A DNA stretch of 62,986 nucleotides, counting the filler, from Reclinomonas americana ATCC 50394 (taxonomy: Eukaryota): assembly GCA_048213135.1 (NCBI GenBank). It is 7 parts of 4 records of this genome, joined end to end, with 100 filler letters (N's around TTAATTAATTAA, not from the genome) between each part and the next. Parts side by side here need not be neighbours in the genome. Positions count along the whole stretch, not along the records: positions 38,301 to 50,676 come from PS015192.1; 6 more parts are not named here. One strand, 5' to 3'. This document shows, piece by piece, positions 30,494 to 60,177 of the stretch (the first letter of the stretch is position 1; each line of letters opens with the position of its first letter). The notes under the pieces are model-generated. The model was not told the origin of the DNA. It searched no databases and saw only the letters and a list, made by a program, of their open reading frames with translations. A program made the position numbers and the translations under genes.

Positions 30494-30532
<39 letters not shown>

Positions 30533-35549: not shown

Positions 35550-35680
35550 CCTTACATGTTTTAATATTATTAACTCGCACGCCCGCGCCCTGGGCTTGCT
35601 GTGTACTTTTTCTAAACCACCCCCCAACCAAGCATTAAATGATATCGTTTGCTGTTATTGATGATTGATTGTGGGCAAAA

Positions 35681-38200
35681 TTAGATTGCGAAATGCCGCG
35701 CTGCTGTGCTTCCGCCAAACGACGATCGGCTGCGCAATCTTTGCAGCACGGGTGCAGAGCCAGCGATTGCTGTTGCTGCTGGCGCTGGTGCCGGCTTCAA
35801 ACCGGGTGAGCCCATCGAACCGCGCGACGAACTCGAGCCGGTGCGCATGAGAACACTGGCGACGGTTCCGGATCGCTTCACCAACTCTGGTCGAGTCAGT
35901 GAGGAGGCGCGCCGAGCCATCAGCAAATTGCTGTTGCTGCGAGTCTTAGCCAGGGACTCGGCCAATCGGAAGACATCATCGGCCGCCGGGTCGCTTGTCG
36001 GATCCTTTTGCCCGGTGGCCACCGAGCTCCGGGAGCGCTGGCGCTGCAGCCGACCGGCCTCGATGCGATGCCGATCGTCGATGCACCGCTGTCGCAACAA
36101 TTCACGCTCCACCGGCCCGAGGCCCGAGGCGCCGTCGTACTGTGCGCCCGACAATTCCAGTCGATACCCCTCGGTGCTCCACAGCAAGCGCGCGTGCGGG
36201 ATAAAGAGGCTTGGCAGCGATCGATCAGCTGGTGTGGTATTCGCCGCGTGCGCCGCCACTCGCAACGCCGCGCTAATGTCCCAGCAGCGCACGGTGCAGT
36301 CCTCACCGCCCGTGTACAGCATGCTGTCGTTGTCGAGTGCCAGAGCCATGGTGTTGATCTCCTGCGGCGTCACGAGCAGAGTGCCGCATGAGCGGCACTG
36401 CGAGCCAGTCGAGAGGTCGAATAGTCGCACAGTGCGATCCGCACTGTACACACGAGTGTGAGTGCGCATCTGAGGCACGGGAGAATGCAGGTAGGGAGGG
36501 CGCGCACCTGCCGGTGAGGAGCCATCGACCGCATCGTGAGTACACCACCGCTCGAACTTCGTCGGTATGCGCTCTCTTGGCTCGGAACAGAGCATCGCCA
36601 GTGGCCGCCGACCAGAAGCGGATACTCTTGTCCCAGCTGCCGGCGGCAACCAGTGCGACTGAATCGGGAGAGAAGGCAATCGCCAGCGCCTGGCGAGTGT
36701 CGGCACGCAGCGCTTGTCGGCACGAGTACGTCTCCGTGTCCCTGTGTATCAGAAAGTGTGCGGATCAGTGCACACCGACAATAAAAAATATATATACATG
36801 CAATGAGTGTGCACATGAGAGCGGCGAACCAGATGCGAACAGTGGCGTCCTTGCTGGCCGACGCTATCCATTGACCGTTCGGCGAGTACGCCACATCCAT
36901 CACCCAGTCCGAGTGACCGCCACTCATCGCATCCATGACGGCAACTTCCTCGTGTCGCGCCACCGACCACACACGCACGGCACCGTCCGAGCCGCCAGAC
37001 AGCACAAACTGGCCGTCGGGTGCAAATCGCACGCTGCGCACGTGAAGCAGCAACCGGTCAGACTACAACTATTCAACTGCAGAGTGAAACTCACGACTCG
37101 CACCAGTACACACGGCCTGCGTGCCCGCGAAGTGACCAGATGGCCTGCCCATTCAGCACGTTCCACAGACGCACCATGCCGTCGTCGTACCCGGCCACTG
37201 CTGTGAGTTGATTTGGTGCGCACTCGATGGCATTGACGCGACCGCCATGGCTCTGTTCCCGGATGACGCGAACCAATGCGCCAGTGGCTGTCTTCCACAC
37301 TCGAATCGAGCCGTCCCAGCTGCACGACACCGCCAGACGTCGATCACACGTCAACGACACGGCACGCACGGGGCCCGTGTGTCCCTCTCCTCGCGTCACA
37401 GTTTCTCCACCAAACAAATCATGCAGCCGCACAGTCTTGTCCTCGGAGCCCGACACCAGAATGCTGCCATCGTGCGAAAAGGTGACACTGGTACGTGCAG
37501 ACAATATGTCAGACAATACAAACATACATGCAGTCTATCAGACGGGGCCTTGCGTACCAGTTGACAGTGTCGGTGTGCGTCTCGATGGTGGTGATCAGAC
37601 GACCGGTACCAGTGGACCACAGTCGAATGGTGCGATCGCTGGCTGCCGTGCCCACAAATCCATCGACCGCAAACTGAATGTCGTGCACCGCACCCGTGTG
37701 TCCCTCCAATCGCGTGCGCACAGTGGCCACTGTGCCGACGGTGCCCGAATGCTGCAATTCCACACTCGTATCCCACAGCATTACCAAGCTGCGGTATGTG
37801 CNNNNNNNNNNNNNNNNNNNNNNNNNNNNNNNATGAATGAAGTGAGCACAGAAAAGCACATTCTGCGCGCGCGTGCGTGCACACGTACCCATCTTCCGAG
37901 CCGGTTGCCATGGTGCGCCCGTCGGCAGCAAACGCAATGGACATGAGCGGGAGGCTGTGGGCAGTCACCGCCGCCGATGTCTCCACTCCAGTTTTCGGAT
38001 CGATGATGCGGAGCGAGCCGTCTTCGCAGCCGAGAGCCAGCGAGGCTCCGTCGGGAGTGAATCGCATGCAGCGCACGGGGGGCAAGCTAATTTCGGGGGT
38101 GGCCCACACGGCAAGGCACTCGCCACTGTCGACCATCCACAGTCGAATCGTCTCGTCGTCGCTGGCGGACGCCAATGCCGCGCCGTCGGTCGAGAACGAC
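35681..38200 (-). CDS. Multi-WD40-repeat protein, 5' partial
   Basis: More than 10 repeats such as ASASDDETIRLW, LEGHTGAVHDIQF, SGSEDKTVRL, SCSWDGSIRVW, GHSDWVMDVAYSPNGQWIASASKDATVRIW, TGGEDCTVRCWD. Confidence 0.92.
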
Positions 38201-38300
38201 NNNNNNNNNNNNNNNNNNNNNNNNNNNNNNNNNNNNNNNNNNNNTTAATTAATTAANNNNNNNNNNNNNNNNNNNNNNNNNNNNNNNNNNNNNNNNNNNN

Positions 38301-40598
38301 CTCAACAACCGCCGCTCGTCCATGTACTACGAGCTGCAGCTGCCCAAGGGCACCTCTCCATACACAGATCCCGTGCGCATGCTGGTGCTGCGTGCCGAGT
38401 CGCGCTACCAGATGGGCGTCGACTATGCGCAGCTCGTCGGCGACGACTTTGCGAAAATGTACAACATTTTCATGGCCACGCTCGTCAAAAACGCGGTGAG
38501 TGTGTGCCCCCCAAGCAACGCCACAGTGAGTAATCTCCTCAACGTGTTGTGTGTGGGCGCCAGCTGGAGCAATCGCTGTTGGAGGAGTTTTTGGACTGGC
38601 AGTGGTCGACGTACTTGGCGCCGGCTACGCCTCCTGAGTTCCTGGAGGAGGTGCAGTGTGCCTGCATGTATGTGCATGTGTATGAGTCGCGACCTGCTCA
38701 CTGGCTTGTTCGTGCGTGTGTGCCAGCTGCGTGGCATGAAGGATGCGGGTGCGGCCATGAACCATCCGCAGCTGGACCGCATGTCGTCGCGCGTGGTGGT
38801 GCTGGCCAATGCGCCGAGCGACGGCGACGACTGGATCCCCGTGATTCTCGAGTTGCGTCTGCTGCAGCTGCTTCTGCTGTGCGATTGCCGCTCACGTGTT
38901 TCGGCGACAGTGAGTTTGAGGAGTGGTTGAAGAACCGCACCGACACCTCGGCGGCGGAGATGCTCGGTGGACTCGCCACGTGGAAGGCACTCGGCAAGTT
39001 CCCCATTGAGGGTCACCACTGCAGCATGATGTCGTGGTGGGGCAAGCTGACCAAGGGCGGACAGCTGGTTTGTCGTCTCGATGAACTCGGTTGGCGAATC
39101 CACCAATCACTAACGCACCGCGGTCTTGTGAAAAACACAGTTCAGCTCGCGCAATCTGGACTGGTCGAAGGTGCGTGCATTCCGTGGTCTCTCTCTCTCT
39201 CTCTATCTTTCGTGCCATTCGCACTCACGACTGCATTGCAGGACACTGGCATCTCTGCGGTGCGAGCGACACGAATCTCCCCTCTTTGCTCGCACCGGTC
39301 GTTTTTTCTTGCTCATGCTGCTGATTTCTGCTGCGCAGTGGAAGTTGATCACGGTGTACCACCCGCCGGAGGCCGGACGCCATTCGTATGCCACATTCGG
39401 GTGCGTCGCCAGCACCTGCCGTCTTTGCAAAAGTGGTTTCTGACTCTCCCGTCGCGCAGCTGGGCCGGCTTTGTCGGAGCCATTGCCGGCATGAGCTCAC
39501 AGGGACTCACTGTGCACGAAGCCAATCTCGGTCAGCAGCTGCTCGCTGATTTCTCACTTCTCACCAGTCCGTGTCGCTCACCAATGTTCTCCAACAGAGG
39601 AGAGCATTGAGACCTTCCGTGCCATCCCGTGGGTGCTGCGCACGCGTCTGGTGATGGAGCTGGCTGCAAACCTCGACGAGGCACGCGACGTGTTCAGTTG
39701 CGCTGGAGCCTGCTGCTGCTGCTGCTGCTGAACCTCCTTTTCATCGCCAGCGTTTCTCATTCTGTGTCGCGCAGCCAAGCTCACCAACAACACGGTCGGC
39801 TTCAATTTCATGGTCACCTCGGCCTCGGATGCCGCCGCCGGCAAGTCCGCCGCCAACGCCTTCGAGACGCAGGCGTGGTACACGGCTGTGTTTGCCGATA
39901 ATGACGAGCGCGAGATCACGTTTCGTTGTCACGTGTGTCGTGTCGCCGACGACGAGATGATGTTGCTCACGTGCTCTTCCCTTCGCCAGCGCCACCTACG
40001 AAGACGTGCATGGTGTCACTCGCCCGCTGGGCAAGCCGTTCCCGAACGCCCTCTACCGCACCAACCACGGTGTGCATGTATGCGAATTTGAATGTTGCCA
40101 ACGATGCCTGCTCACCGCTGCGTGTCTCGCAGGCTACGATCCGATCATTCGCAAGTCGTACCAGTGGCCGATTTCGTGGCACGCCACACAGGACAGCATC
40201 TACCGCTACTTCCTCATTGCCAATTCGACCGAGGCGTACGTGGAGTCCAAGGGCGCCAAGGTCATTGGCCCCGACGAGGCCGTGACCATCACATCGCTGG
40301 CCGCCCCAAAGGGCGACAACTTCTTTGTGTGCGACAACACCAATGGCGGCTTCACCGTACTGAGCGTGGTCTACAGCCCGAGCGACTTGCACGTGTACGC
40401 GGCCTGGGAGAATGGCACTGGCAGCAGCTGGCGCACTGCCGGGTTCGTCTCCGATCTGCGAGTTGCTTTCGTCTCGCTCTCCGTCCTCACTTACCTTGTC
40501 CACGCAGATGCACTGGCTACGTGGCAATCGACCTGTCGTACTTCTTTGGTGACATGAGCGACTCGGCATCGCGGCTGCGAGGAAACAACGTCGAGTGA
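38301..40598 (+). CDS. Peptidase C45/acid-ceramidase-like Ntn hydrolase (Dictyostelium dcd1-like), 5' partial
   Basis: Nucleophile HCSMMSWWG, FSSRNLDW, LITVYHP, FGWAGFVGAIAGMSSQGLTVHEANL, PWVLRTRLVME, NNTVGFNFMV, YRTNHGYDP. Confidence 0.85.
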
Positions 40599-40654
40599 GG
40601 AGAAAAAGTCCTGCAATGAAGTGACAGGATTGGCTTGATTTCCGTCGTTGATTC

Positions 40655-43526
40655 ATGGCGTCATCATCGGCACCGCGACACTCCTCAGGCTCCGCAGGGG
40701 CCTTTATCGATGAGGGTGCCACGTTTGAGTCGCTGGGCCTCGATCGTCGTCTCCTGCTGGCCGTGCTCAATCTGGCCTACACAGTTGAGTATGACGCACA
40801 CAGCGAGTGAGTGAGTGAGCAGGAAAGGGACGGCAGCTTGTGTATGGGCATGAGTAGAGCAGTGTGCACATGTGGCGGAGAGGACACGACGCCGTCTGCA
40901 ACACGAGGGCGCTCGTTTCGCTCGTGCACATTCACATCATCGCTCACTGACACGCACACACACTTGCCCAGAAACCCACTCTTGTGCAATCGTCGTGCAT
41001 CCCGCTGGCCCTGCAAGGCAAGGTGAGAGGAATGCCTAGACAGTGAGTGGGCAAGAGAATAGCTGCTCACTCGTTCGTCATCATCTATTAGGATATTCTG
41101 GCCCGTGCACGCACGGGATCGGGCAAGACTGCGGCCTACTGTCTCCCGTTGCTGCACAAGATCCTCACGGCCAAGAAGAGCGCAGCATATGAGCCACGAA
41201 TTGCGGCACTGGTGCTGGTGCCGACCAAGGAACTGGTCGAACAGGTCACAGACAACATTGCCGAGCTGAAGCGCTACTGCGGCTCGTCGATCTCGGTGAT
41301 TGGGGTGACCTCGGACGCGTCGCTGGCGCAACAGAAGCCGCGATTGGCCGAGTTGCCGGATGTGCTGGTGGGAACACCGGGTCGCGTGCTGCAACATCTC
41401 GAAGAAGGGGTGCGGAAAATCATTCGTTGGAGCCAGAGGCTGTCTGTCGCTCACCATTCTCTCTCTCCTTCTCGTGCTCAGAACATTACGCTGTCGGAGT
41501 CACTGGAGACGCTGGTGCTGGACGAGGCCGACTTGCTGCTGTCGATGGGTCACAATGCTGATGTGCGAGCAATCACTGAGCGGATACCGCGGACGTGCCA
41601 GACGCTGCTCATGTCTGCGACCATGAACGAGGACGTGGAGGAGTTGCGACGCCTCGTGCTGCACAATCCGGTGACGGTGAAGTTGGAGGATGCCGACGAT
41701 GACACGGCCGGCTCACTCTACCAATATGTATTACCGTGAGTCATGTCGTCGTCATTCATCGTCTGCTGGTTGTCGACCCGGTAGGTGGGCTCACTCCACC
41801 ACCATTCTCGTTTGTGCAGTGTTCGCGACGACGACAAATTCCTCTATCTGTACTGCATTCTGAAATTCCGCCTGGTGCCCGGCAAGGTTCTGGTGNNNNN
41901 NNNNNNNNNNNNNNNNNNNNNNNNNNNNNNNNNNNNNNNNNNNNNNNNNNNNNNNNNNNNNNNNNNNNNNNNNNNNNNNNNNNNNNNNNNNNNNNNNNNN
42001 NNNNNNNNNNNNNNNNNNNNNNNNNNNNNNNNNNNNNNNNNNNNNNNNNNNNNNNNNNNNNNNNNNNNNNNNNNNNNNNNNNNNNNNNNNNNNNNNNNNN
42101 NNNNNNNNNNNNNNNNNNNNNNNNNNNNNNNNNNNNNNNNNNNNNNNNNNNNNNNNNNNNNNNNNNNNNNNNNNNNNNNNNNNNNNNNNNNNNNNNNNNN
42201 NNNNNNNNNNNNNNNNNNNNNNNNNNNNNNNNNNNNNNNNNNNNNNNNNNNNNNNNNNNNNNNNNNNNNNNNNNNNNNNNNNNNNNNNNNNNNNNNNNNN
42301 NNNNNNNNNNNNNNNNNNNNNNNNNNNNNNNNNNNTTCATCAACGATCTCGATCGGTGTTATCGCGTCAAGCTGTTCCTGCAGCGGTTCGGCTTGCACGC
42401 GGCTGTGTTGAATTCGGAGCTGCCGGCCAACTCTCGGTGAGTTGGGGGGGATGTACTTACCTTGTTCACCACCACCCACTCAAGGTCTCACGCTCCACTC
42501 CCCGCAGCATGCACATTGTGCAGCAGTTCAACAAGGGTCTCTTCCCATACCTGCTGGCCACCGACGAGTTCTGCTTCGAGGATGCATCGACACGGAAAAC
42601 GGGCGCCTCCAAGAAGAAGAAGTCGAAGAAGGCGCAGGAGGCTGACACCGAGTACGGCGTCTCACGCGGTGTCGACTTTAAGGACATCCAGACGGTGCTG
42701 AATTTTGACATTCCACCTACCCCGAAGGCCTACACACACCGAATTGGGCGAACGGCGCGTGCGGGAGCGAGTGGAACGGCATTGACACTGGTCGACATGA
42801 GACGAGAGGAGAAGCTGTTTGCGGAAATTGTGCACACGCAGACTGGTGAGTCGCGGCGAGGCGTCGGTGGTGGTTCGTGGAGTGCGCTGACCGACTCGGG
42901 GTGTGCAGAGCGTGGTCACGAGGTGCAAATGTTTGAGGTCAATGTCGACGACGTGGAAGCGTTCCGGTATCGCGCCAGGACCGTACTCAGCGGCATCACG
43001 AAGAATGCGACGACGAACGCGCGTGCACAGGAGCTGAAGATTGAGATTTTGAACTCGCAAAAGCTGCAAGATCACTTCCGCGAGAACCCCGAAGATATGG
43101 AGGCGCTGAAGCACGACTCGCAGCTGCAGGCGCATTTGGTAACGGTGCGCTTCTCTGTCGTTGTCGTCTGTTTCTTGTTTCGCACTCGGTATCTAACTCG
43201 CCCTTCTGTGTCTGCAGCCCGACTTGAAACACGTGCCGACCTATCTGCAACCGAAATCGCTAAAGCCGTCACCCCTGGAGAGTGCAATTGCCGATTCCTT
43301 CATGGGCAAGAAGAAGTTCCAGTACAAGCGACAACGCGAGGAGAACGGCAAGTTTACCAAGAACAAGGTTGGTGTTGTGCGCCGCCTGCCCACTGTCTCT
43401 CCATTCTGCCGACTGACATGGTCTGCTCTCTGGCGCGCGTGCACGCACACACAGAGACGAAAGATCGCACCAAAGGATCCGCTGCAGACACCGGCAGAGA
43501 GGAGAGCGACTGCTCGCAAACGCTGA
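40655..43526 (+). CDS. DBP9: DEAD-box RNA helicase DBP9/DDX56
   Basis: Q motif [83 protein letters not shown]. Confidence 0.95.
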
Positions 43527-43586
43527 GGGCGAATGAACACATGATACAGGCGTCCCGTCGTGTTTTCTCGCTTCGTTCCTTCTTTT

Positions 43587-46500
43587 TCAGTCGCCATCCC
43601 CGTCGTCCTCCACCGTGTGGATGCTCCAGGTGTCGGGTGGCGGCGCCGGTCCTGCACGTCGGTGCGGGTTGAAGGCCACCACCACACGAGGTGCGGCGAT
43701 TTGAATATCCGGCTGCTCGTCGCGCCGCAGCAAGCGCATGTTGGCCACGGCGGCGTCACGCACCGCTTTGGGATCGACCTCGCGCTGTGTACATACGCAT
43801 CGTGAGTCTACACCGCACGGGTGTGGGAGCAAAAATGAGTGGATGGCATGCCTTTTCTCGCGGAATCGGTGCACGAATGACGGCGCCGGCCGTTCGCTTG
43901 CGTGTGTGTGCCTCGGCTGTGGTGAGCGTGTCGTAATCCAGCGCCGCTGTCTGGCGACTCGGCTGATACGAGGTGCTCCTTGTGTCGCGCGACACACGAG
44001 GCAACGAGAAGCCGCCGCCCGACTCGGGCTTCAGGAATCGCAGAGCCGACTCGACGTCGTACTCGGGGGTGAAGCGCGGCACTGGCAGATCGTGATCACC
44101 AGGTCGTCGTCGCTGCCAGACAACAATGCAGGTGAGCCAAACAGGGAAGAACTGAACGGGAGAGAAGCAGCTTGCGCACCCCCTGATACTTGCTGAAATC
44201 GACATCCGGAACGCGTGGTCTCAACATGGCCGAGCTTGCGTTGAACTCGTCGTGCGCCATGCCAATCGGGCGAACCTTGTCATCCTCCGTGATGCGCCGG
44301 TTCGGTGTCAGGTCGCGTCCGTTGTACATGAGTGGTGCTGTGTTGAGAAAGTGAGCGCAGACAAGCAGCAGTGACTGACCGTCTCGCGATGCACACACCT
44401 TTGCTAAAGTCTGTGGCACGCGGCTGTGGCAGTGTTGCCGCCAGAGCTGCCTCGACATCCAACTCAACGGCGTCGTTCACCGGCGCCGGCGGGATCTTGG
44501 AGCGGCGGAGATCGGGGATATCACTGCGAGGCAGGTAGCCGCCTGTCGACAGCCAGCGAGAGGTGTGAGCATGATTGACGAAAAAGACGAGGACGCTGGC
44601 GCGCTCGCACCAATAACACGCGGAAACAAGACTTCACGAGGAATGTCGTAAATGGCGCTGTTGAGTCGATCGGGGAGCGGTCGTTCCTCTCGGCGTCGTC
44701 GGGCCACCGGTTCAGGGCTGACGATGCGGTGGCCTGGAATCGTGCGCTCCACCAGCGAGTATTCCACATCGTAGCGTCTGTGCGCAACAACGTCAGCAAC
44801 AAACAGCCACAGTTGCGCAGATAGCGATGCAGACAGACCCTGGATCGAGGCCAGGAGGCGGAGGCGGGGCTAGTCGTGGCGGAAGCTCCAGCGAGTCGTG
44901 CAAATGATCGGGGCGCATCACCACGAGACACTTGGCGCTCATGGTCGGGCGCAGATCGGATAGTGTGGGACCAGTTGCCGCATACAACGCCGCCTCCAGG
45001 TCCTCATTTTGCAGCCGCCGAAATCGTGCAACCTCGCCCTCTGTCAATGGACGATGATGAGAGCGAACACGTGGAGCACCACCAGACAGCGACGTCGACA
45101 AACCAACAGTCGGCGGATGCAACACTGGCGCAAAGTCGTGCTTGGGACGCACCGGATCCAACGAAGGATTGTAGGTGCCAGGATCGAGTACCTTTGGCTG
45201 ACGGCCACGTCGACGTCTGGGCTCCGTGACCGTGGCTGCAATTATTGGGGGTGAGCAGAACGAAGGGATGCTCCTCGCCAAAGCGTCCTCTCGCAACTGT
45301 CAAACACTGGTCCAGGCACATGCGGAAGCAGGGCCACGGACGGATCGTGCCACTGCGTGTCGGGAGAACGCCACAATCTTTGCGCCTCTTCCAGACCTGC
45401 AGCGAGCGATCAGTGCCTGGCACAGATGGAACAATCGGTCAGCTCACACGTACCGGTCACCACTGAGTCGTCCACAGTGAAGCGGCGACCCGTGGTACGA
45501 TCGAACATGATGGCGGCCACGTGCGCACGAACAGCATCGTACTGCGGGTCGTAGAGACCCGGTCCAAGGCGATCGGGCGGCGCACTGTCGTCGACGACAG
45601 GGAAACGCTCTCCGGTACCGAATGGCACGCCGCCACGAATGGTGCGCTGGTCGACCACCGTGTACGTTCCGGGGCCCTGCGATGACAGATTGAAGAGTGT
45701 GAGTTGCAGCAGCCACAGCAGGCGAATGTTGACGCGCTGCGCGCAACTGGCACACGTGGTGGCGCCGACCAGGAGCGTAGCTTTGATAGAAAGGAAAGAA
45801 TGTGTGAATGCGGTGCTGCATCGCAATGTGGCTCGGGGGAAGCACAAGTACCGGTGAGGGTGGCGGTGCAATGGTCGCCAGACGAGGCCTCGATTCGATG
45901 GCTCCATATGCACGATCGACATCCAACAGCTGTGGCACACCGGCGGTGTGAATGGATGGCAACAAGAATGCAGTGTTGCACGGCACGCTGCTCACCAATG
46001 GTTCCGGTTCTGCATCGTGCACTGGCCGACGAGGTGCGGCAACGACGGTGGGCGGTGCCATGACAGTAGTCGGGGCTCGCGGACGAACGGCATCGACATT
46101 CGGGTGCAGTTCAAGCGAGCGGCGCCGCACATGTTCACGACGCCGGCGAGTTGTCGGTGTGCGCCCTGCATACCGACGAAAATCGACAACACCAGAGGGT
46201 GGTGGTCGCATAGGTGATGGAGACCGTGAAGATGGCGGCGGCGATGGTGGTGGCGGAGTGGACGCGCGCTGGGGGAATGCGCAAGTGAGTGAATCACGAA
46301 TGCATGCCACTTGCTGCGCCACTGCGTTGCTCACCGATGCACTGGCTGGTCGCTGATACGCAAAGCGTACAGGTGCACTCGCAAAGTCCACAGCCGCACT
46401 GTGCTTTTGCACCACATCCCATCGTGGAGCGTACTGGCCAGGCCCCGGTGTTCCGTGGCGTGACGCCGAGGATGCGGAAGAGGGAGAAGACGCTGGGGAC

Positions 46501-47391
46501 GACGACGACCTGCCACCCTCTCTGTGCTGGCGACGATGTCGACGGTGCGATCGATGCCGTCGTGGAGACGGCGACGAGGGAAACCTGAGTGAGTGTGAGT
46601 GTGCGAAGAAGAAAAGACCGGATGGCAGTTTGCATGTGTGTTGTTGGCTGACCTCTCGGCACCTCGACCAAGATCGGGCACACCCACAGGCGCCGGCGGT
46701 GGCGGGCAGTAAAAGTCACGCGCATCGACGTGGCCGTCGTCGCCTCGACGCCGGCGTACCTCCTTCTTCACTGGCTGCATGACCACGGCCGACGGATGCC
46801 GCGGCTTGACGGCATCCATGTTGGGCACATTCTCCTTTTCCGCGCCCTTCGTGGCTCGCCCACGCGACAGCCGAGCTAACAAACGAGGCAAGTGAGCGAT
46901 CAACTGGCGCAGACAGCGACTGGAACAAAAGAACACCAACCACGCTTGGTCTTGCCGGTCTTGTCCACGATCGCCGCACCGACGACCGTCGACGGCGCCT
47001 GTCGATGCTGCGTGACCTTGACAGGGTGCACCAGTGGAGCATCAAAGCGCGTAAACTCCACTCGCCCCTCCTCATCGCCACGCACGTGGCGAGCACGACG
47101 CGCCGAGTTGATCGCCGCCGCTTCCCGCCGACGACACCTGCAGCATTCTTCATCAATGACGATCGCTGACGATCGCACACACACACACACTCACCGTTCC
47201 AGACGACGCTCGGCGTCCTGCACAGCCGCGGCGAGGATCGAGGGGCCGCTGGGCGAGGTGGTGGTGGACGACGTTCGCTCGCGATCGCCTCGACCCTCGC
47301 CACCGTCGCCCCCCGTGTGCGCGTCGAGTTTGTCAATGGCGGCTTCGGCACGCGCAATCAGCGCCGCCAGTTCCAGCAGCCGCGACGACAT
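43587..47391 (-). CDS. SHIPPO/PGP-repeat (ODF3/STPG-like) protein, likely axonemal
   Basis: Repeated [30 protein letters not shown], each followed by V-R-P-type motifs; Pro/Arg-rich. Confidence 0.7.
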
Positions 47392-47478
47392 GCGGACAGC
47401 GCCCGCGCGCACGTGGAGAATGAAAGCGCGCAGGACTGCTGAGAGGACATCCACTCTCCCTCTCTACTCTCGCACGTC

Positions 47479-48544
47479 ATGGCCGCAGTCACGTTGCGTT
47501 CGGGCCTGTCTCTCTCACACTATGTGTCCGTCTATGCTCATGCCACGTGCTCTTCGCAGCATTGAATACACTGTGCTCAAGCCGGAGGATGTGGATGCGG
47601 CAGCTGAGTTGTCGGGTCGGTGCTTTGGCGAGAGCGAGCCTGTGACCACTGCGTGCGGTGAGACTGCGTGGCGACGAGTGAGCAGCATGCTCACGTTCTC
47701 ATGAGGACTGTGAGCAGATGTTTCCGGCGACTACATGATTGGCTACTGGCGACCTTTTGTGGAGATTTGCTGTGCGAATGACCTGTCGGTGGGTGCGTGG
47801 GCGGTGGATGCCACCACTGGAGAGCGTACGCTGGCCGGCTGCGCGCTCAACATGCCGTACAATACCCCGGACCCGCAGGGTGAGATGCGTGTGGAAGCAA
47901 GAGAAAAGTTTCACACTTTTTTTCATCGTGCAGATGCATGCATGCACGTGCGCAGCGTTCACCGATTACTACGAGGCCGACCCGCAGCCAGCGGGTTCGT
48001 CTCTGTGTCCCATGTGCTTTGTTTTTTGCTTCGTCACGCCTGCATCTCGCTCATTCGTTGCATGCGTTCAGCCATTCACGCGTGCCTCGACTTGCTGGAT
48101 GAGAACTACCACAAGGTGCTCGACATTGATCCGGCCGAGGTGCTGCTGCTGCTGGTGTATGCCGTCGACAGTCGCTTCCGTGGACGAGTTGCGTACGGGT
48201 TGCCATTCGTTCCCATGGTCGCTTTGTGCTAACGAGTCGCCAGGGCATCGCCAACGAGCTGACGACGCGGACGTTCCAGATTGGGCGTGAGCGTGGATTC
48301 AAGCGCGCCGTGTCGCACACCTCATCTGGTGCGTGTGGCCGTCACCAAGCGATCTCGTGTGCGTGCGCTCTCATGTGTATCTGTCGTGCACGCAGCGTAC
48401 TCTCGCGCAGCCATTATGCGCGCCGGTGCCCGGGAGGTAACTGCTGTGGATTATGCTACATTCGAGTTCCAGGGTACCAAGCCATTTGCTGGACTGCCGG
48501 CTCGCGGGCACACCCACTTCTGCGTGGTTGAAGCAGCTCTCTAA
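47479..48544 (+). CDS. GNAT acetyltransferase resembling insect arylalkylamine/dopamine N-acetyltransferases
   Basis: F-x-x-x-EP near the N-terminus, motif A AVDSRFRGRGIANEL formed across an intron, TSSAYS, VDYATF; TAA at 48544. Confidence 0.8.
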
Positions 48545-48631
48545 TCCGGTGTCACACACATCCTCTCCTGCAATGCAGCATCGTTTCCCCTTTTGTTCCT
48601 CCCTGTACACACTCGCACTCCGGCAGTCGGC

Positions 48632-49671
48632 TTACTTGCCTGTGGAGGGATATTAAATGAGAGTGTGCCCACATGCCACGCACGGGAAGTGTCCGCGTAC
48701 CGATGCTCTTGCGATTGCGCGCTCCATCAACAACACCCGGGCCCTTCTGCGAGCCGCCCGAAGACGATTGGCTGCTGTCTGCGCCGCCGTGGATAAACTC
48801 TGCGAAGCAAATCCCTCAGCATGTGGTGAGATTTGCATACAGGCGTGCACGCAGTGGCGCACCGGCGAGGAATGTGGCCAGGAAAACACGCTCCAGCAGT
48901 TGGCGATACTCGTCGATCTGCAGCACACCGTCGCCATTCGAGTCGACCTCTGCGTGCAACAATGAGCGCAAGAGGAAGGAATGCACTGTCATCGACACCT
49001 TACTCACTCTGCATGGCCCTCGCGACAACCTGCGCGACAGTGAGGTGATGAGAAGCAATGGTACTCACGGTCTTGTGAGAAGCATCGCACTCACCTCACG
49101 AGTGGGCGCTCGCAGCGAGATGGAGGGGTTCTTGGCGCAAAAATCGGTAAAGCAAATCTGCAAGAACGTCTCCACCTCGTCGACATTCAACGAGCCGTCA
49201 TGATTCTGCAGAGGCACGGCATGTCAGTGTCGTAAAGTGTCACATGTGGTGACGGCAATGCACGCACCGCATCCACTCGGCGGAAAATCTGCACGAGTTG
49301 CTGCTGGAAATCGGGACTGTGCATGCGGTGGTGAGCGAGCGATCTGACAAAATGAAACGAATGCACGCCCCGCACCTCTCGATGCGCGCCATGACATGGT
49401 GGACGCTCGACATGGCCAGCCTGCACACAGCAATCAAGTGAGCGACGCAATTGTGACAGACAGCAGCAGATGACGCAATCGCAATCGCAGCGCACTTGAC
49501 AAGAGACAAGTCGCCGTGCTGCTGCTGCACGGCCTTGGTCAGCAGACGCTCGGCCTCCGCGATCGGATCGTCAGCCTAACAGCAGACGCAGTCAGCGCAC
49601 ATGCCCGCCACAAACAACAACCACCGAGAGCCAGCGCGCACCAGCAGCACCGAGTTGATGATCGTTCCCAT
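48632..49671 (-). CDS. Two-EF-hand calcium-binding protein, possible N-myristoylation (MGTIINS)
   Basis: Spliced loops DANHDGSLNVDE and DSNGDGVLQIDE; 8 ordinary introns. Confidence 0.8.
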
Positions 49672-49773
49672 GTCCAGTGATCCCTGTCGCTGATGACTCG
49701 GCGCACCTCCTGCGCATCTCTTCCGTGAGACATGCGATATGCCATTCTCTTATCCACTATACACACACCAGTG

Positions 49774-50614
49774 CTACGCGTCGCCACTTGCGTTGCCTCC
49801 GAGCCACGTTTCGTCTCCAACTGCAACAATGCGAGTGAGAAGAGTGCAAATTGGATGCTCTCTCTTCACACAAGAACAGCAGCACGCAACAGCTGCTGCC
49901 GGCGCAGGCTTGCCAGAGGACGACACCACAGAGACCACATACAACACCACCATGACACCCGCTGCAGAGAGAGAGATGAGAGAAAGAGATGATGCGCGCG
50001 ACACACAAAGGCAGCACAAACCAAACAGCGCCAGTGCAGTGAACGGGGCGAGCACGCCCGAGTAGCCCAGTGACGCACACGCGCCAATCGCACTCCCCAG
50101 CAGTGTNNNNNNNNNNNNNNNNNNNNNNNNNNNNNNNNNNNNNNNNNNNNNNNNNNNNNNNNNNNNNNNNNNNNNNNNNNNNNNNNNNNNNNNNNNNNNN
50201 NNNNNNNNNNNNNNNNNNNNNNNNNNNNNNNNNNNNNNNNNNNNNNNNNNNNNNNNNNNNNNNNNNNNNNNNNNNNNNNNNNNNNNNNNNNNNNNNNNNN
50301 NNNNNNNNNNNNNNNNNNNNNNNNNNNNNNNNNNNNNNNNNNNNNNNNNNNNNNNNNNNNNNNNNNNNNNNNNNNNNNNNNNNNNNNNNNNNNNNNNNNN
50401 NNNNNNNNNNNNNNNNNNNNNNNNNNNNNNNNNNNNNNNNNNNNNNNNNNNNNNNNNNNNNNNNNNNNNNNTGTATCTCCACTGCTGCGTCCACTGCTGC
50501 TGCTGCTGCTTGCTCTTCTTCCAGCCCTGTGCGCCATGTGACCACGTGCAGTGGGCCGCCTATCATGGTGCGCGCCACAGGCACTGCTGGTAGAGGCTCA
50601 GCAGCGGAGGCCAT
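49774..50614 (-). CDS. Small putative membrane protein interrupted by an N-gap
   Basis: ATG at 50614; hydrophobic exons VLAPFTALALFGLCCL and GVMVVLYVVSVV; structure poorly constrained. Confidence 0.35.
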
Positions 50615-50776
50615 CGTCAGAGTGTCCGTCGATTGATTGCGCAGTCTGTGCCTTCTTTAACATGCTGTGCAAGCTGNNNNNNNNNNNNNNNNNNNNNNNN
50701 NNNNNNNNNNNNNNNNNNNNTTAATTAATTAANNNNNNNNNNNNNNNNNNNNNNNNNNNNNNNNNNNNNNNNNNNN

Positions 50777-53700
50777 GCTGCAAGGTGGCACATCGCAACG
50801 CGACACACTGGAAATGTCCGTCGGCCAGCTGCAGGCGCAGCTGCGTGAGCTTCAAGGTGCTCTGACGGCGGCCGAGGCCGACAAGGCTCTCCGCATGGGC
50901 CAGCTGGCTGCGCGCAACGATGCGCTGGCGGCGGCCAAGCAGGAAATCAGTCGCCTGGAAGGTGACGTGCGTCAGCAGGTGGCGTTGGTGGCCGACGGTC
51001 AAAAGACGGCATCAGGCCTCAAGAGCGAGCTGGATCGGGAGCGTGCAGCGCGAGCGGCCGACAGCGCACGATTCGAACGGCAGCTGAAGGCGCTGGAGGA
51101 TGAGTTGGCGCAGCGCCGCCACCAGCTGGAGCAGGCGAACGACGAGCTGGAGCAGGTGCGTGCGGCCAAGGAGGCTGCCGATGCCGCGTTGCAGGAGGTG
51201 TTGGCCAAGGTGGACAAGAAGCGCGAAAAGGTGGCCGGCGCACGAGCGACCAGCTCTGCGCTCGAGGTGATGGGTCACAAGATTCGCGAGCAGCTGGCGC
51301 AACTGCAGGAGGAGCGTGCGGCGCTGGAGGCGGCGGTGGCCGACGCCAATCGCCGCTGCGAAGATGCCATTCGCGAGCGTAACCAGCGCGACGCCGCCAA
51401 TGCCAAGCAGGTGGCGCGTCTGCAAGAACAGCTGGCCGCGCAAACGAAGCGGGCCGACGGTTTGGAGATGAATCTGGACAAGGCCACTGGAGACCTGCAG
51501 AAGACGCAGGCGCAGCTGAAGCAGTCGGATACCGAGAAGCAGGCCGCCGAGAGCCGTGCATCGCAACTCGAAGAGCGACTGCGAGCGGCGCAGGAGGGTG
51601 CCAGTGCGGCGGGCAGTCGTGCTGCGGAACTCGAGGGCGAGTTGTCGCAGTGGCGTCGCACGGCGGAGGAACGCGGTGCACAGATCGCAGAACTCCAGCG
51701 CGGTGAGCACCGGTCGGAGCAGGCGGCTGCTCGTGCTGCCTCGCGAATTCAGCACCTGGAGGGGCGTGTGGGCGAGCTGGAGCGTGAACACGCCGACTCG
51801 CGCGCTGCGGCCAACGATGCGCGCAAGAGCGCCGATCAGGAGCGTCTGGAGAAGGAGGCATTGGCGGCGACCGTTGCCCAGCTCACCGAGCGCCTGCGCG
51901 ATGCGCAGTCGGCGCTGACCACGGCGCGGTTCGTCGATTGTCGCTGTTCTGCAGAAGAGTCTACCTGCCTGCCTGCTCACACCACCCCTACATACGCACA
52001 GTGCCGCCAACACCATGCAACAGCAGCAACTGACAGCAGCCGCGACTGCGGCGGCCGAGGCACAGCAAGAGGTGGTGCGTCTGGAGGGCTTGGCGCGCGC
52101 TCTCGAAGCGCAGTTGCGCGATGCCAAGGTTCAGCTGGGAGAAGGCGCAGCGCAGCTGGAGAGCGAGAGGAGTGCTCGTTGCGTCCAGCCGCCTTTTCCC
52201 TGTTTGACTCTTGCTGGCCATTCATGATGTTGTGCAGGAGCGGCGGAGGCCAAGGTGGCTGCTGCCAACAAGAAAACGCTGGAGGAGCAGCTGGCGGTGC
52301 AACGGCAGGCGGTGGCCGACTGCCAGAAGGAGCTGCATGATGAGCGTGGAGCGCGTGCGGCTGCCGAGTCGGCTCTCCGTGAGGCGAAGCAGGCGTTGCA
52401 GCGTGAGGAGGTGAGGTCGATCGAGCAGTGGTGCCATGATGGAGTTCGCACTAAAAATGCGTGCACACGCACGACACTGCGCAGGGCAAGGTGACATCGA
52501 GTGAGGCCGCTCTGACCGACGCCCTCAACAAGCTTCGCCAGCGGAACACACAGATTGAAGAACTGGCGGCGCACGAAGCAGCGCTCACCAAGCTGCTCGA
52601 CGATGTCGAGAAGGAGAGGGTCGAACGTGTGGCTGCGCACGAGCGTGAGTGCTCGACTCTGGCCGAGCAGCAGAAGCAGGTTTGATGCCATCAACACGCT
52701 CATTGACCCTCTTCCTCTCGTCAACTTACATGCATGTGTGGGGGAAAAAAACAGTTGGCCGCGCAGTTGGATGCCGCCGGCAGCCGAGCTGTGGCGCTGG
52801 AGCGCAAGGACGAGGAGAAGGGGCGTGTGATTGACGGCCTGAAGAGCGACTTGCAGGCCTCGCGTGCTGCCACTGCCGATCTGGAGACGCGCCTGGCGCA
52901 GCACCAGAAGCTGCTGCGGGATGCGGAGGCGGCGCGTGTTGCTCTCGCATCGCGCCTCACCGAGGTCGAATCGGAGATGCAGCAGTGGAAGACGACGGCG
53001 GAGGAGCGTGGCAAGCGACTCTCCGAGTTGCACCACGATCTCGAGCAGGTGCAGCAGGCAGAAGCGCGACAGCAGGCGCGCGCCGATCATCTGGAGAGTC
53101 GCCTGAAGGAGGCTGAGAGGGCGCTGGAGGAGGCGCGTGCGGCACTGGCTGCCGAGCGTGCACTCAGTGCCACTGCGGTGGTCGACAAGGACAGTGTGCA
53201 GGCCGAAAATGCGCAGCTGCGTGATCGGCTGCGAGTGGCGCAGGCGGCACTCACTTCGGCGCAGGCAGACGTCGCGCTGGCCAAGGAGGAGGCCAACACA
53301 CGAACGGCTGCACTGGCGCAGCGGCAAGCGGATGTGGCCCGGTTGGAGCAGAGCCTGCGCGACTCGGACGACCACGGCAAGGAATTGGCGCGTCAGCTGG
53401 CGGAGCTGCAGGCGGAACACGATCGCAGTGTGCGTACCAATGCTGCGGCCGTGGAGTCCCTGACGCAGGCGCAGCAGCAGGCGCAGCACGAGTTGCAGGA
53501 CCGCGCGCTGGCCATTGAGGATTTGAGCAATCAGCGAGCGACGCTGCAGGCTGAGGTCAACCGCCTGCGTGCCGAGGTGGAGAAGCGCAACAGCGAATTC
53601 GGCAACACCGACGCCGAGCTGCGTCGCAAGACAGCCGAATGCACGCGTCTGCAGGCCAAGAGTGCGTCGCTCGAGTCGCGAGTGGCGGAGGTGGAGACCA

Positions 53701-56700
53701 ATCTCGACTCGACAAAGCAGGCGCTTCGCGATGCGCAGGCCGCCGTCGATAAGCTGCGCGCGGACAAGGATGCGCTCGGCAGCGAGAGCAGCAAGCTGCG
53801 CGCCCAGGCGCAGGAGTTGCGCGATGCAGCGGCTGCCGCCAACCAGGCGGCCAGCCACACTAAGGAGCAACTGGACGCGGCAACACGCGACCTGGCCGAG
53901 GCACAGCGCGAGGTGCATTCATCTTCCTCCCTCTCCCTATCCTACCTACCGTTTGCTGTGCTGACACTCTCCTTTCGTCGTGCAGTTGAGCAAGTTGGAT
54001 GCGTCGCTGGTGTCGGAGAGTGCCAAGTTGCGCGACGAGAGTAAGAAGGGCCAGGCGCTCGCCGACGAACTGGAAGGTGTGCGGCGGCAGGCGGCGGCCG
54101 ATGCCAAGGCCGCCGAGGCACGTCAAGATGCACTGCGTCGCGAACTCGCCGCGTGCCAAAAGGCACTGAAGGAGACGGAGGCCAAGTTGGCGAGCGAAAC
54201 GCGCGCTCGTGAGGATCTGGAGGCCCAACTGGCCGCCCTGAACGACAAGGTGCAGCAGAAGAAGTCCAAGGTGCAGAGTGTGCGCGGTGAGCTCCACCAG
54301 CAGNNNNNNNNNNNNNNNNNNNNNNNNNNNNNNNNNNNNNNNNNNNNTTAATTAATTAANNNNNNNNNNNNNNNNNNNNNNNNNNNNNNNNNNNNNNNNN
54401 NNNCAGGAGGTACTGGTGCAGAATGCCGCCATGGTCGATCAGCTGCAAAAGGAGAGGGAGGACCTGCAGCGGGCGCTGGATGAGTTGCACAACGAGAAGC
54501 AGAAGTTGCAAGGGTCGCATGCAGCCATTGAGCAGTCGTTTGCCGAGGTGCGCTCGCAGCTGGAGGCCAAGGAGTGGGAACACCAAGGCGAGCTGGAGAC
54601 GTTGGACATTCAGCTGGAGGAGAAGCACATGTCGACGCAGCAGCTCGAGTCGCAGCTGCGCGCAACAGAAGCCGATCTGCGAGCCTCGCAGCAGCGCGCC
54701 AACGACCTGGCCGAGCAGCTGCGCAGTTCGGAGGCCGCGCGCAGTGCGCTCAAGACCGACGTGGAGACCGTGCGCGGTGACAACCTGCGGCTGCAGGCGC
54801 AGCTGACGGAGAGTGCCGCCAAGAACTCGGCACTGCAGAACGACAAGCGGCAGGCGGAGCAGCGTGCGGCGCGTGCCGAGTCACGACTCAAGCTGGCCGA
54901 GGATCGAGTGGCCGAGTTGGAGGCACAATTGGCGGCGGCGCGTGAGTCGCTGGCCAAGACCACCAGCGCCCTGGACGAGGTGACGGCGGCGCAGAACACG
55001 CTCACTGCGGCGAATACGCAGTTGCAGAAGCGCATCGACCAGCTGCAGCCGGCACTGGCCGGTGCCCGGGAGGCACTCGCCACTCGCGAACGTGACGCCG
55101 CCAATGCCACCGAGGCACTCCACCAGGCGCAAGCCGAGTTGACGACNNNNNNNNNNNNNNNNNNNNNNNNNNNNNNNNNNNNNNNNNNNNNNNNNNNNNN
55201 NNNNNNNNNNNNNNNNNNNNNNNNNNNNNNNNNNNNNNNNNNNNNNNNNNNNNNNNNNNNNNNNNNNNNNNNNNNNNNNNNNNNNNNNNNNNNNNNNNNN
55301 NNNNNNNNNNNNNNNNNNNNNNNNNNNNNNNNNNNNNNNNNNNNNNNNNNNNNNNNNNNNNNNNNNNNNNNNNNNNNNNNNNNNNNNNNNNNNNNNNNNN
55401 NNNNNNNNNNNNNNNNNNNNNNNNNNNNNNNNNNNNNNNNNNNNNNNNNNNNNNNNNNNNNNNNNNNNNNNNNNNNNNNNNNNNNNNNNNNNNNNNNNNN
55501 NNNNNNNNNNNNNNNNNNNNNNNNNNNNNNNNNNNNNNNNNNNNNNNNNNNNNNNNNNNNNNNNNNNNNNNNNNNNNNNNNNNNNNNNNNNNNNNNNNNN
55601 NNNNNNNNNNNNNNNNNNNNNNNNNNNNNNNNNNNNNNNNNNNNNNNNNNNNNNNNNNNNNNNNNNNNNNNNNNNNNNNNNNNNNNNNNNNNNNNNNNNN
55701 NNNNNNNNNNNNNNNNNNNNNNNNNNNNNNNNNNNNNNNNNNNNNNNNNNNNNNNNNNNNNNNNNNNNNNNNNNNNNNNNNNNNNNNNNNNNNNNNNNNN
55801 NNNNNNNNNNNNNNNNNNNNNNNNNNNNNNNNNNNNNNNNNNNNNNNNNNNNNNNNNNNNNNNNNNNNNNNNNNNNNNNNNNNNNNNNNNNNNNNNNNNN
55901 NNNNNNNNNNNNNNNNNNNNNNNNNNNNNNNNNNNNNNNNNNNNNNNNNNNNNNNNNNNNNNNNNNNNNNNNNNNNNNNNNNNNNNNNNNNNNNNNNNNN
56001 NNNNNNNNNNNNNNNNNNNNNNNNNNNNNNNNNNNNNNNNNNNNNNNNNNNNNNNNNNNNNNNNNNNNNNNNNNNNNNNNNNNNNNNNNNNNNNNNGCTG
56101 GAGAAGTCGCTGGCCGAGACCACGGCTCGCCTGGCAGACACGCAGAACAAGCTGAAGGACTGTGAAGACGCGCTGCAGCGCGAACGACGTGGTCGAGCGG
56201 CCGATAAGCAGGCTGCCGGTGCGCAGGTTGCACAGCTCGAGGCCGATGTTGCTCGACATGTGGCGGCACAAGCTGATCTGAGTGGCAAGCTCGAGGGTGC
56301 GCACCAGCTGGCCACCGACGCCGTTGCGCAAGTCAAGGAGGTTTGTGTGTGGACACGCTTGATTTCTCATACGGTCGAGTTCGTTCTAACAAGCGAGTCT
56401 CCAGCTGACTGGCAAGGTGACAAACAAGAAGGCCAAGATCGGCAACTTGAAGAACGCCGTCGCAGATCAGCGGCGACAGGCTGAGGTACTTTCCCTCGTT
56501 TGAGTTGTATGTGTGATGCTGATGCTCATCCATTGTGCGACAGAACAACCGCGCACAAGCCGAGAGCCTGCGTGCGGATGTCGACAGTCTCCGTCAGCAG
56601 CTGGAGGCCGAAAAGGCGGCGCGTGAGTCGCTCAAGGGAGAGAAGGCGCAGGCCGACGCCGAGGCAGCAGCCGCTGCCACCGAGGTTTGTTTCTGCAGAA

Positions 56701-59700
56701 GAGAGAGTGCTTGCTGATTTGATTGCTCATCCTGGACCACCAGCATCGCCGGCAATTGTCCGCACTGGAGGACAAGGTGGCCGCTCTGCAGTCCACCGTC
56801 GAAGACGACAATGCCGAGAAGCGTACATTGCAGTCGCGCCTCAAGGCCGCCGAAGCCGACAAGGCTGCGCTGGCGGAGCGACACGAGGCAACCGAGCGTG
56901 AGCTGGCCGGCGTGGCGGAGAAACTGGGCGCCTCGTCGTTGCGCGAGAAGGCACTGCTCGGCGAGGTGGACGAACTGAAGGCGCAATCGGCAGCCAAGGC
57001 CGCTCAGTTGGCCGACCTGCAGAGCGCACTGCGTCGTGCCGAGGAGAATGCGTTGCGTGCTGACAATCGCAACAAGGCGCTGAAGGCGCGTATCGATGAG
57101 CAAGACGAGGCGGCCGAAGTGCAGCGCAAGGCGCTGCTGGCCGCCAATGCCGCGGTGGAGGACGAGCGCCGCGATCGAGAGCGCATGAATGGCGAGATTC
57201 GCGAGGCCGGCGCACGGTTGACGGCAGCCGAGGGCGAGGTCGCGCGTCTGCGCACGTTGCTGGACGAGGCCGTGCGTGCCAAGGACACCACCTCGGCGGG
57301 AGATGCACAGCGGCTGGCGGAGATTGTTCGCATGGAGAGCGAGTTGCAGGAGGAGCAGAACCGGTGTGCGGCGTTGAAGCGACGCGTTGCCGACATCACC
57401 GAGGCGCTGGACCGGGAGAAGGCGGCCGTCGCACGTGCTGCGGCCGAGGTCGCCGATCTCAAGGCGCAGCTGGCCAAGGCCGCCGAGGCAGCGCAAGCAC
57501 AAAACGCCAAGGCCGATGGCCAGCAGCAGGCGGCCGCGGAAGCACTGGCGGCGGAGCGTGCTCGAGCCAATGAGCTCGCCGAGGAACTGGCCGCGGCACG
57601 CAAGCAGGTGTGTGTGTTCAAATGGGCAAGTTTGATGAGAGGTTTTTCGACTGTCACTCACCTTTTATTCCACATGCAGGTCGACGCACTTGCCGCCCAG
57701 ATCAAGGAGGGCCGCGAAGGCGCTGCGCAAGCGGATGAGGTGATTGTTTTTACGTGGGTTGTGCATTGCGCCTCGCGGTGAATGATCTGACTCGCTTGCT
57801 TTGTTGACGACGACAGCGTGCCCGCGCGCAAAAGTCCCGCCTGGAGAGCGAGCTGACGACGGCCGCCGAGCGTCTGCGACAGCAGGACACGGAGACCAAG
57901 AATCGTGTGGCCGCGTTGGAGGAGGAGATTGCTCGCTTGCGTGAGCAGCTGCGAGCGGTGACGCACGATGGAGTGGCCGCCAAGGCAGCCGCCGACGAGG
58001 AGGCGGAGAAGCTGAATTCCGAGATCAACAAGCTGCGCACGGCGCTCGAGCGTGAGCGTGGCGACGCCAGTGCCGACTCGGTGCGTCTGCGTGAGCGACT
58101 GGCGCTGCTGGAGAAGGAGGTGGCGGACAAGCAAGTCGAGATTTCGTCCAAGGAGGTGAGCAGGGAGAGCATGGATCGATTCATGTGGGTGTGTGTGTGT
58201 TTTGTTGCTGACTCTTGGTGAGCAGGCGCAAATCGCAGCCATGCGCGGAGAGTTGCAGGCGGCCGCCAACAGGGTGCACGATGCGAATCGCGAGGTGGCG
58301 GTCGCCAAGGAGAAAGTGGAGGCCGCCGAGCGTCGAGTACGTCGTGAGACCGATCACAACAGTGCGCTGCAGAAGCAGCTGGAGGAGCTTGCGGAGCGGC
58401 GGTCGCAGTTGGAGCGCGATCTGGAGGAGATCCCGCGGCTGCAAATGGAGCTGGACCGTGCACGAGCACTCATCTCCAATCAGCAACTGGCCATTGCTCA
58501 AGGCGACACCAAGTACGAGGCACTGCGGAAGCACACGGATGAAGTGGAGGCGAAGCAGGCAAACCACGACGCAGAGCGTGGTGCACTGCTGGACAAGATC
58601 GACGACTTGGAGCGGTCACTGATTGCTGCCGAAGCAGAGACCAAGGCCACGGCCGAAGCGGTGAGAGTTGTTTGTAGAGTGTGGCATTCAGTTCTGCATG
58701 CTCACGACCGCACAGGCTGCACGCGCCGATGCGGAGACCAAGAAGGCGCATGCCAGAGCCGCGGATCTGACCATGGCGTTGGAGCAGCTGAAGCACGAGG
58801 TTTGATGTCCTCGCAGAGTTGGTCTTGCTGCGCATGGCGGTGCTGACTGGTCGGTTGCAGTTGGAGGCGCAACAAATGCAGAACCGAGTGCAGGCGGAAC
58901 AGGCGGCTGCGGAGCAGACTGTGCTGAACGACACCATTCGTGACTTGAAGATGCGCGAGGAGTCGCTGATGGGCGAGCTGCAGCGTCTCTCGTCGACAAT
59001 TGATATTGCCAATGTGGCCATTCAGGATCTGCGCGGCGACAAGGAGCGGGTGGGTTGTCTCGCTTGTGTCACCATCCGCGACACAAAGTTGCTTATAGTC
59101 TGTGCTCGTGTATGTTCACCGTAGCTGGAGGCCGAAATCGCCAAGTTGCAGCACGCGCTCGACGTGGCGACGGGCGACTTGGCGAGTGCACACGAGGCCA
59201 AGGGTGAGTTCCCATTCTCTCTCGTTGCACCGTACGCCAGTGTCCTTGAATCTCACTGATTTGTATCTTTTCCCACCGTTGCAGCCGCTCTTGATGTGCG
59301 CTGCAATGCAGCGGAACAGCTGGCCGAGAAGCGCCTGGAACGCATCAAGCAGCTGGAGGACGAGCTCCGGCAGCTGCTATCTCGTTCCAACACCGCCATC
59401 AAGAACCTGACCACGGAGCTGACTGAGGCGCGGTCGGCGCTGGCCGACGCACGTGCCGATCTCGGCACCACCACCAACGAGAGGAACGAATTGCTGGAGC
59501 AGCTGTCGAACGAGAGGCAGGCCCACCAGGCTGACAACACGCAGAATACCGACGAGCTGGCACGTCTGCGTGCCGAGTTGGCCGAGGCGAAGGAACGCCA
59601 CTTGAAGGAGATGCAGAGCACGGTCAACAGCCTGCGCTCCACCATGAAGGCTCTCGACACGGAGGTCGCGACGCAGAAGCGTTTGGCCGATGGTGCGTCG

Positions 59701-60115
59701 TCATCGTCGTCCCGAGTGTGATCACGTCTCTTTCTCCCCCTCGCTGACTCACTCGCAAATGTGTTGTTTGTGTGCAGAGCGCGCCAAGCGAGTGGGCGAG
59801 TTGGAGCGCCTCTTTGCCGAGGCACAGATGGTGATTACGAAGAATAACGCGGAGCTCGACCGAGCACGCAACGAGTTGAATACGTTGGAGAATGCTCGCG
59901 CCCAGCTGGCGCAGAGCGACGAATCGCGAGCCCTGCTGCAAAAGGACTTGCGAGATGCGCAGGCCAAGCTGGCTCTGATGGAAGAGGAGGTCGACTACTT
60001 GCGATCGGTGGTCGACGGTAACCCGCGTCTGCACGACCTGGTCTACATTGACGACAAACTGGCCGGTAGCCGCAGCAGTGGTAGTGACCGTAGCAAGCGT
60101 CCGTGGAAGCCGTAG
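50777..60115 (+). CDS. Very large coiled-coil protein (myosin-tail/centrosomal/rootlet-like), 5' partial, spanning two gaps
   Basis: Continuous A/E/L/Q/R heptad exons on both sides of the 54304-54403 and 55147-56096 gaps; ends RPWKP-TAG at 60115. Confidence 0.85.
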
Positions 60116-60177
60116 AAGAATCGCGAAGGCGTGCGTGTATGTGATAAAAAATGAAAACCATCTTTGTGCGAAACAGT

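Follow-up and report, generated by a model that had tools for sequence, protein, structure and literature searches.

We identified two forms of 5' splice site in a 62,986-nucleotide stretch of DNA, hereafter the window. To judge from this sequence, the organism uses a shifted form, typified by A/GTTGCGT (a slash marks the cut), in about a quarter of its introns, mostly when the end of the exon is not G. We propose, with a probability of roughly 0.7, that the shifted introns are GT..AG introns of the major spliceosome in which the 5' splice-site signal lies one base deeper and U1 pairs in a +1 register.

Introns of the window and their donors

The window has a GC content of about 58%, and its genes are interrupted by introns of about 70 nt. 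Spacers of 100 nt each (44 N, a 12-mer with a stop in every frame and 44 N) at 14264-14363, 29755-29854, 38201-38300, 50677-50776, 54304-54403 and 61765-61864 connect separate contigs, and genes on either side of a spacer are therefore not linked. Introns were called with a donor-blind gene finder, whose donor model was GT only, in 29 gene intervals chosen by hand; a self-trained finder run on whole strands over-predicted and was discarded. After retraining with a donor model, 181 introns were called, and hand curation, applied also to the gene intervals, retained 159 GT..AG introns, spread over 25 gene pieces whose frames stay open. Excluded were GTTGCG candidates at 26058, 26161, 27478 and 33609 (among unresolved calls), the entire gene at 14364-15267 and one spurious hydrolase intron.

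Two introns, at 595-1560 (+) and 21363-21850 (-), are long and pyrimidine-rich; one consists of tandem units of about 120 nt and the other of simple repeats. An RsmH-like methyltransferase (7860-8900, -) and a CNOT10-like gene (8944-12146, +), both labelled by eye, have a head-to-head arrangement, their starts being less than 100 nt apart. The region 38301-40557 (+) encodes a 476-aa partial protein interrupted by 12 introns, and the five of its exons searched against Pfam gave no match. A metagenome scan for a close relative found none, the top whole-exon identity being 50%. The spliced DBP9 protein has its best match in the jakobid Seculamonas ecuadoriensis (566 bits; next match 495), and the two pair at 100/100 in a 31-row tree for which 30 rows were chosen from 120 homologs, with Seculamonas the sole named discobid among them. 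We regard a jakobid or other discobid affinity of DBP9 as a lead rather than a placement.

Shifted donors were defined by a fixed rule: T at +3, G at +6 and a base other than G at +5. Under this rule 37 of the 159 curated introns (23%) are shifted, 104 have G at +5 and 18 have neither pattern. The shifted introns span 1773..61034 and occur in 17 of the 25 gene pieces, always beside ordinary introns; 22 of the 37 donors read GTTGCGT. The donor-blind pass, which used no donor model, recovered 24 of the 37 along with 83 of the 122 other donors, and an unsupervised mixture fit to its calls separated two components, G/GTGCGT and A/GTTGCGT (BIC 4216 for two classes, 4252 for one and 4300 for three). 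The motif GTT[GT]CG is found at 34/159 curated donors versus 29/2950 other sense-strand GT dinucleotides in the same genes (p 8e-29, for a curated set selected in part with a donor model). All 37 introns are compatible with GT..YAG ends in frame; retention adds no stop in the curated frame for 7 of them, and an in-frame GT with G at +5 lies near 9. Pieces of one or more very long coiled-coil proteins, encoded on three contigs at 50777-60115 (+), have shifted introns at 1/16, versus 23% overall.

The two forms also differ on the exon side. An exonic G precedes 4/37 shifted donors versus 112/122 other introns (p 6e-21), and in the donor-blind subset 3/24 versus 77/83 (p 5e-14). Of the 43 donors that lack this G, 33 carry G at +6 and 10 are non-shifted. 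Shifted donors match 3.57 of 4 core positions, compared with 2.9 in ordinary donors with an exonic G, and the trade-off between exon-end G and intron-side match is seen within the ordinary class too. C occupies +4 in 53 of the 122 ordinary donors. At -1 the shifted class (A, C, G, T: 18, 10, 4, 5) resembles ordinary -2 (57, 25, 14, 26; p 0.69) but differs from ordinary -1 (p 3e-21), with A at 18/37 where 6.3 are expected (p 9e-6); shifted -2 likewise resembles ordinary -3 (p 0.3). The whole motif is therefore displaced, rather than being interrupted by a bulge. A standard U1 arm would form 5.05 Watson-Crick pairs with shifted donors in the +1 register versus 3.22 in the normal one, and 6.05 pairs with ordinary donors in the normal register versus 2.36 in +1. 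The shifted class accordingly shows both sequence features of a shifted-register 5' splice site, complementarity to U1 in that register and displacement of the exon positions.

Beyond the donor, shifted introns are like the rest of the genome's introns in branch motif and YAG acceptor, as expected of members of the major-spliceosome class. Median lengths are 69 nt versus 68-71, the branch motif (CTCAC, CTGAC or CTCAT) lies at a median distance of 19 nt versus 20, and 35/37 end in CAG compared with 115/122. Minor (U12-type) introns were considered and rejected: neither the RTATCCT donor nor the TCCTTAAC branch of their consensus appears in the donor and branch tables. Mobile introns of the introner type were rejected as well, the median best local score between intron bodies being 21 for shifted and 22 for ordinary introns. 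Among 117 confidently placed introns at 50 unrelated DDX56 loci none is of the shifted type, although 4 of the 18 uncertain ones in this set of 135 satisfy the rule.

Homolog profiles and individual introns

The original prediction held that conserved catalytic motifs are rebuilt only by splicing at the shifted donors. The seven donors that it cited are all present (three GTTGCGT, two GTTGCGC, one GTTTCGT and one GTTGAGT), and GT..AG splicing at them yields the peptides it named in open frames. These motifs are better described as conserved than as catalytic: acetyl-CoA is bound by the GNAT motif and ATP by the Q-motif, the RasGAP ECDP and the SHIPPO repeat are not catalytic, and the YxxxK of the SDR lies entirely in the upstream exon.

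We built profiles from 111 DDX56 proteins, 80 prokaryotic SDRs and 6 hydrolases (out of 8), and scored every donor and acceptor pair up to 9 nt away without assuming GT or AG. The DBP9/DDX56 Q-motif intron (40784..40971, +; A/GTTGAGT) scores 375.3 bits when spliced, 12.1 when retained, 12.2 when cut as G/TT..AG and 375.1 when both ends are moved one base downstream (hereafter +1/+1). A 440-nt run of N at 41896-42335 within this gene costs no protein, and its halves join seamlessly against homologs. For the SDR intron after YxxxK (20836..20903, -; G/GTTGCGT) the same four scores are 273.6, 183.1, 179.3 and 274.0 bits. A second shifted intron in the SDR gene (20940..21004, -; A/GTTGCGA), absent from the original prediction, gives 273.6 spliced, 166.5 retained and 273.2 for +1/+1. 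Of two introns in a dienelactone hydrolase, the one at 60971..61034 (-; C/GTTTCGT) gives 208.8 bits spliced and 22.7 retained, and the one within the RGD/W motif at 60270..60340 (-; G/GTTGCGT) gives 208.8 spliced, 186.1 retained and 198.9 with a GT 3 nt upstream.

An alignment that fits better with the segment retained had been named as a refutation; at all five sites the retained form fits worse, by 363, 107, 90, 186 and 23 bits at 40784, 21004, 20903, 61034 and 60340. Scores also collapse at the five sites with the G/TT..AG cut and with the inner GT at +6, and the shifted GT belongs to the top-scoring GT/GC-AG pair at 5/5. The +1/+1 cut nevertheless scores within 0.4 bit of GT..AG (differences of +0.2, +0.4, -0.4, 0 and 0, GT..AG minus +1/+1, in the same order), and joint slides of both ends come within about 1 bit. 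Homology thus fixes the removed length but not the cut, because joint slides tie. The alignments show that introns are present and what net length is removed, and they specify the donor once GT..AG is assumed. The word 'only' in the prediction holds solely with GT/GC-AG ends assumed, since sliding both ends scores alike; removal, net length and the best such pair all stood. Similarly, its claim that the proteins give evidence independent of the donor pattern is borne out for intron presence and length and fails for the position of the cut.

A database protein, P0121, is 51% identical to the window hydrolase and appears to be an unspliced read-through, with introns at three shared positions. 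Where the window has 61034, the P0121 residues are H followed by V-L-C, which makes G at +5 impossible there and hints that the relative shares the odd donor.

The evidence for the GNAT, SHIPPO and RasGAP introns is weaker than for DBP9, the SDR and the hydrolase. The GNAT intron (48188..48243, +; A/GTTGCGT..CAG/G) is a donor-blind call of 56 nt in phase 0 that joins RFRGR to GIA, which we take to be the glycine motif of the GNAT family; its retention meets a stop, and a branch-point-like CTAAC (48229..48233, +) lies 15 nt before its end. The aaNAT-like gene (47479..48544, +) has 7 exons in a 221-aa model, with two shifted introns (47493 and 48188) and four ordinary ones, and rival upstream donors would remove the exon end that contains RFRG. 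In a PDB search that exon end gave a weak, non-significant alignment to VDSRFRG in insect aaNAT2 (E 0.18). Five single exons of the gene gave no GNAT-family Pfam match, PDB searches with its exons otherwise returned weak or designed-protein matches, and one exon had no match of at least 0.9 in the ESM Atlas. The family label is a tentative one, drawn from the motif and the weak PDB match.

The intron of the SHIPPO-repeat gene (45677..45747, -; A/GTTGCGC) is a weak case, missed by the donor-blind pass, and an in-frame GT 6 nt upstream also leaves GPGTY. The RasGAP-domain intron (28498..28591, +; A/GTTGCGC) was called donor-blind. A canonical-looking in-frame donor at 28486, 12 nt upstream, would remove the four residues ECDP, which are worth 6.8 bits in Pfam (36.1 with them and 29.3 without). 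A word-index homolog search matched neither the RasGAP exon nor a hydrolase exon, and a PDB search with the RasGAP exon gave no match. Upstream of the RasGAP domain (25080-29754, +) lie exons with several shifted donors, in part myosin-like by eye, and the frame is ambiguous between 25907 and 26330 (+).

Position of the cut and alternative readings

The sequence favours, without proving, a cut before GT and after AG. Both cuts could instead fall one base later, with the intron starting UUGCGU after an exonic G and ending AGN, as the original prediction had cautioned. This would keep the frame and the homolog scores, restore the exon-side consensus and the +5 G, and leave the U5/U6 ruler normal, in line with the statement in PMC11162779 that cleavage normally occurs 5 nt upstream of the U6-paired G. 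The residue that GT..AG predicts has no advantage in the homolog columns: at the DBP9 junction it is K, found in 6/111 where E occurs in 28/111, and of the 80 SDRs 13 have N and 11 have S at one junction, 34 having A and 41 G at the other. The sites 18941 (intron 18941..19005, +), 40784 and 38852 (intron 38852..38910, +), proposed as places where the models differ, do so as predicted (F or V, K or E, D or E), the first and last being donor-blind calls. Four of the seven cited donors (48188, 45747, 61034 and 60340) cannot discriminate, because G follows AG there, and 27 of the 37 shifted sites yield a different base under the two models.

The base after AG in the shifted class (A4 C14 G10 T9) is unconstrained yet varies with phase, G being found in 8/17 in phase 0, C in 7/12 in phase 1 and T in 5/8 in phase 2. 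It follows the phase profile that the first exon base shows at ordinary introns (p 1e-4; heterogeneity p 0.02), which argues against its lying in the intron, and does so in the donor-blind subset (p <1e-4), in recognisable genes (0.001) and at non-G sites (0.014). In the controls, intron positions -4 and -5 gave p 0.22 and 0.64, and the following two exon bases 0.23 and 0.04; with a generic codon-position profile the test was not significant for either shifted or ordinary introns. About six variants of a codon-context test were run. The downstream form favours GT..AG by about 4:1 (P 0.009 under +1/+1), the upstream-inclusive form is equivocal (likelihood ratios 1.3 and 0.5; P 0.02-0.03 under GT..AG, with a poor fit for both models), and the permutation form gives p 0.08-0.15. 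The later cut would also require abnormal chemistry at both ends and the loss of the universal terminal Gs; the first and last G of an intron pair with each other in the second splicing step. The caution thus holds for homology while the DNA statistics weigh against the later cut, which we judge quite improbable.

A dedicated set of snRNAs (a variant U1 and perhaps U6) might instead read GUUGCGU in the normal register and define a parallel intron class. The tight shifted consensus would suit such a set, and U1 arms that co-evolved with the donors have been described in Entamoeba and Mastigamoeba (bioRxiv 10.1101/2022.06.08.495308). A normal-register partner, however, leaves unexplained why exon positions -1 and -2 copy ordinary -2 and -3 and why the consensus is the ordinary one displaced by exactly one base, and branch and acceptor signals are common to both classes; we consider this reading unlikely, though it is the strongest of the competitors. 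U1 might also pair normally with the exon side and GU while an extra U at +2/+3 is looped out, a bulge register known at human 5' splice sites (PMC4856993). It would explain the intron-side displacement but calls for G at -1 and A at -2, whereas -1 is depleted in G (4/37 versus 13 expected, p 0.002) and enriched in A. Bulging may apply to the four G/GTTGCGT sites; as the main mode we rejected it as very improbable. Lastly, the gappy assembly and hand-curated models raise the prospect of an artefact, be it a doubled-T sequencing error, faulty gene models or copies of a single family of mobile introns. An error would not shun an exon-terminal G, however, and a homopolymer error as the source of GTTGCG was rejected; the coding frames are intact, the class is recovered donor-blind, similarity among the bodies of shifted introns does not exceed that among ordinary ones, and P0121 appears to share one such position. 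An artefact is the least probable of these alternatives, with very little weight left to it.

Proposed mechanism, known systems and significance

Under the preferred reading, U1 snRNA would bind shifted donors in the +1 register, with the first G of the intron standing in for the last exon G, the last exon base for -2, and GCGU at +4..+7 for +3..+6, while cleavage would remain before GU and after AG. An altered U1 arm is suggested because standard U1 cannot pair with C at +5, present in 34/37 shifted donors. With an arm retuned to GUUGCGU, pairing would be perfect for the shifted class and would contain one mismatch, at +1, for ordinary G/GUGCGU; we propose this mismatch as the reason why 92% of ordinary donors carry an exonic G. 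Since G is at +6 rather than the usual +5, pairing with the U6 ACAGA box would slip correspondingly or be lost. That one U1 arm fully complementary to GUUGCGU serves both donor forms, with a one-base U6 slip genome-wide, is a tentative extension to which we give somewhat worse than even odds. An Rfam search of the window returned 18 matches, none at gathering score, and no snRNA gene. Matches to a guessed U1 arm in the window were donor sites in reverse orientation and chance occurrences, and those in viral contigs amounted to 120 stretches that we take as chance.

In 2009 Roca and Krainer reportedly described atypical human 5' splice sites that U1 binds in a shifted register. A shifted +1 register at such sites is also covered in PMC4856993 and PMC11162779; as here, all U1 pairs are displaced by one position and GU is the cut site. 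The human validated bulge and loop registers together account for about 1.5% of sites (PMC4856993), compared with 23% of introns shifted in the window, whose consensus GUUGCGU, unlike the human one, has C at +5. Entamoeba (GUUUGU) and Mastigamoeba (GUGCGC) are likewise protists with a non-standard donor consensus, and Mastigamoeba has C at +4 in common with the window's ordinary class (bioRxiv 10.1101/2022.06.08.495308). Their donors have G at +5, a normal register and a single consensus per species, whereas genes of the window mix two forms displaced from each other by one base; a donor of this type was rejected, as the shifted class with G at +6 coexists with ordinary donors.

Two major donor classes, AG//GUNNN (U5) and NN//GURAG (U6), are distinguished in PMC11732430, and there too exon-end G is traded against the intron-side match; the class without exonic G normally has G at +5, rather than at +6 as in most such donors here. 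At the STAT3 donor D2, a non-canonical U6 register (PMC11162779) is also off by one base, as U6 pairing would be here, but in a single gene and with the GU element one base nearer the cut, whereas in the present case it is one base further, genome-wide. Intron ends of jakobids, given in figure 3 of PMC1201135, could bear on the question of lineage. A literature search, which covered mostly journals outside subscription, found no paper on such a donor class. Overall, the sequences point to a known mechanism, the human-type shifted register, at an unusual scale, rather than to an Entamoeba-type donor, U12 introns or introners.

If this reading is true, a register that is exceptional in humans would serve a deep-branching protist routinely as its second donor code. 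A G at +6 is at odds with the ACAGA-box ruler of U6, by which the cut is normally set, and the organism would offer thousands of natural substrates for studying how U1, U5, U6 and Prp8 choose the cleavage site. The shifted class would also misguide gene finders trained on standard donors, and P0121 marks a relative that shares the hydrolase intron positions.
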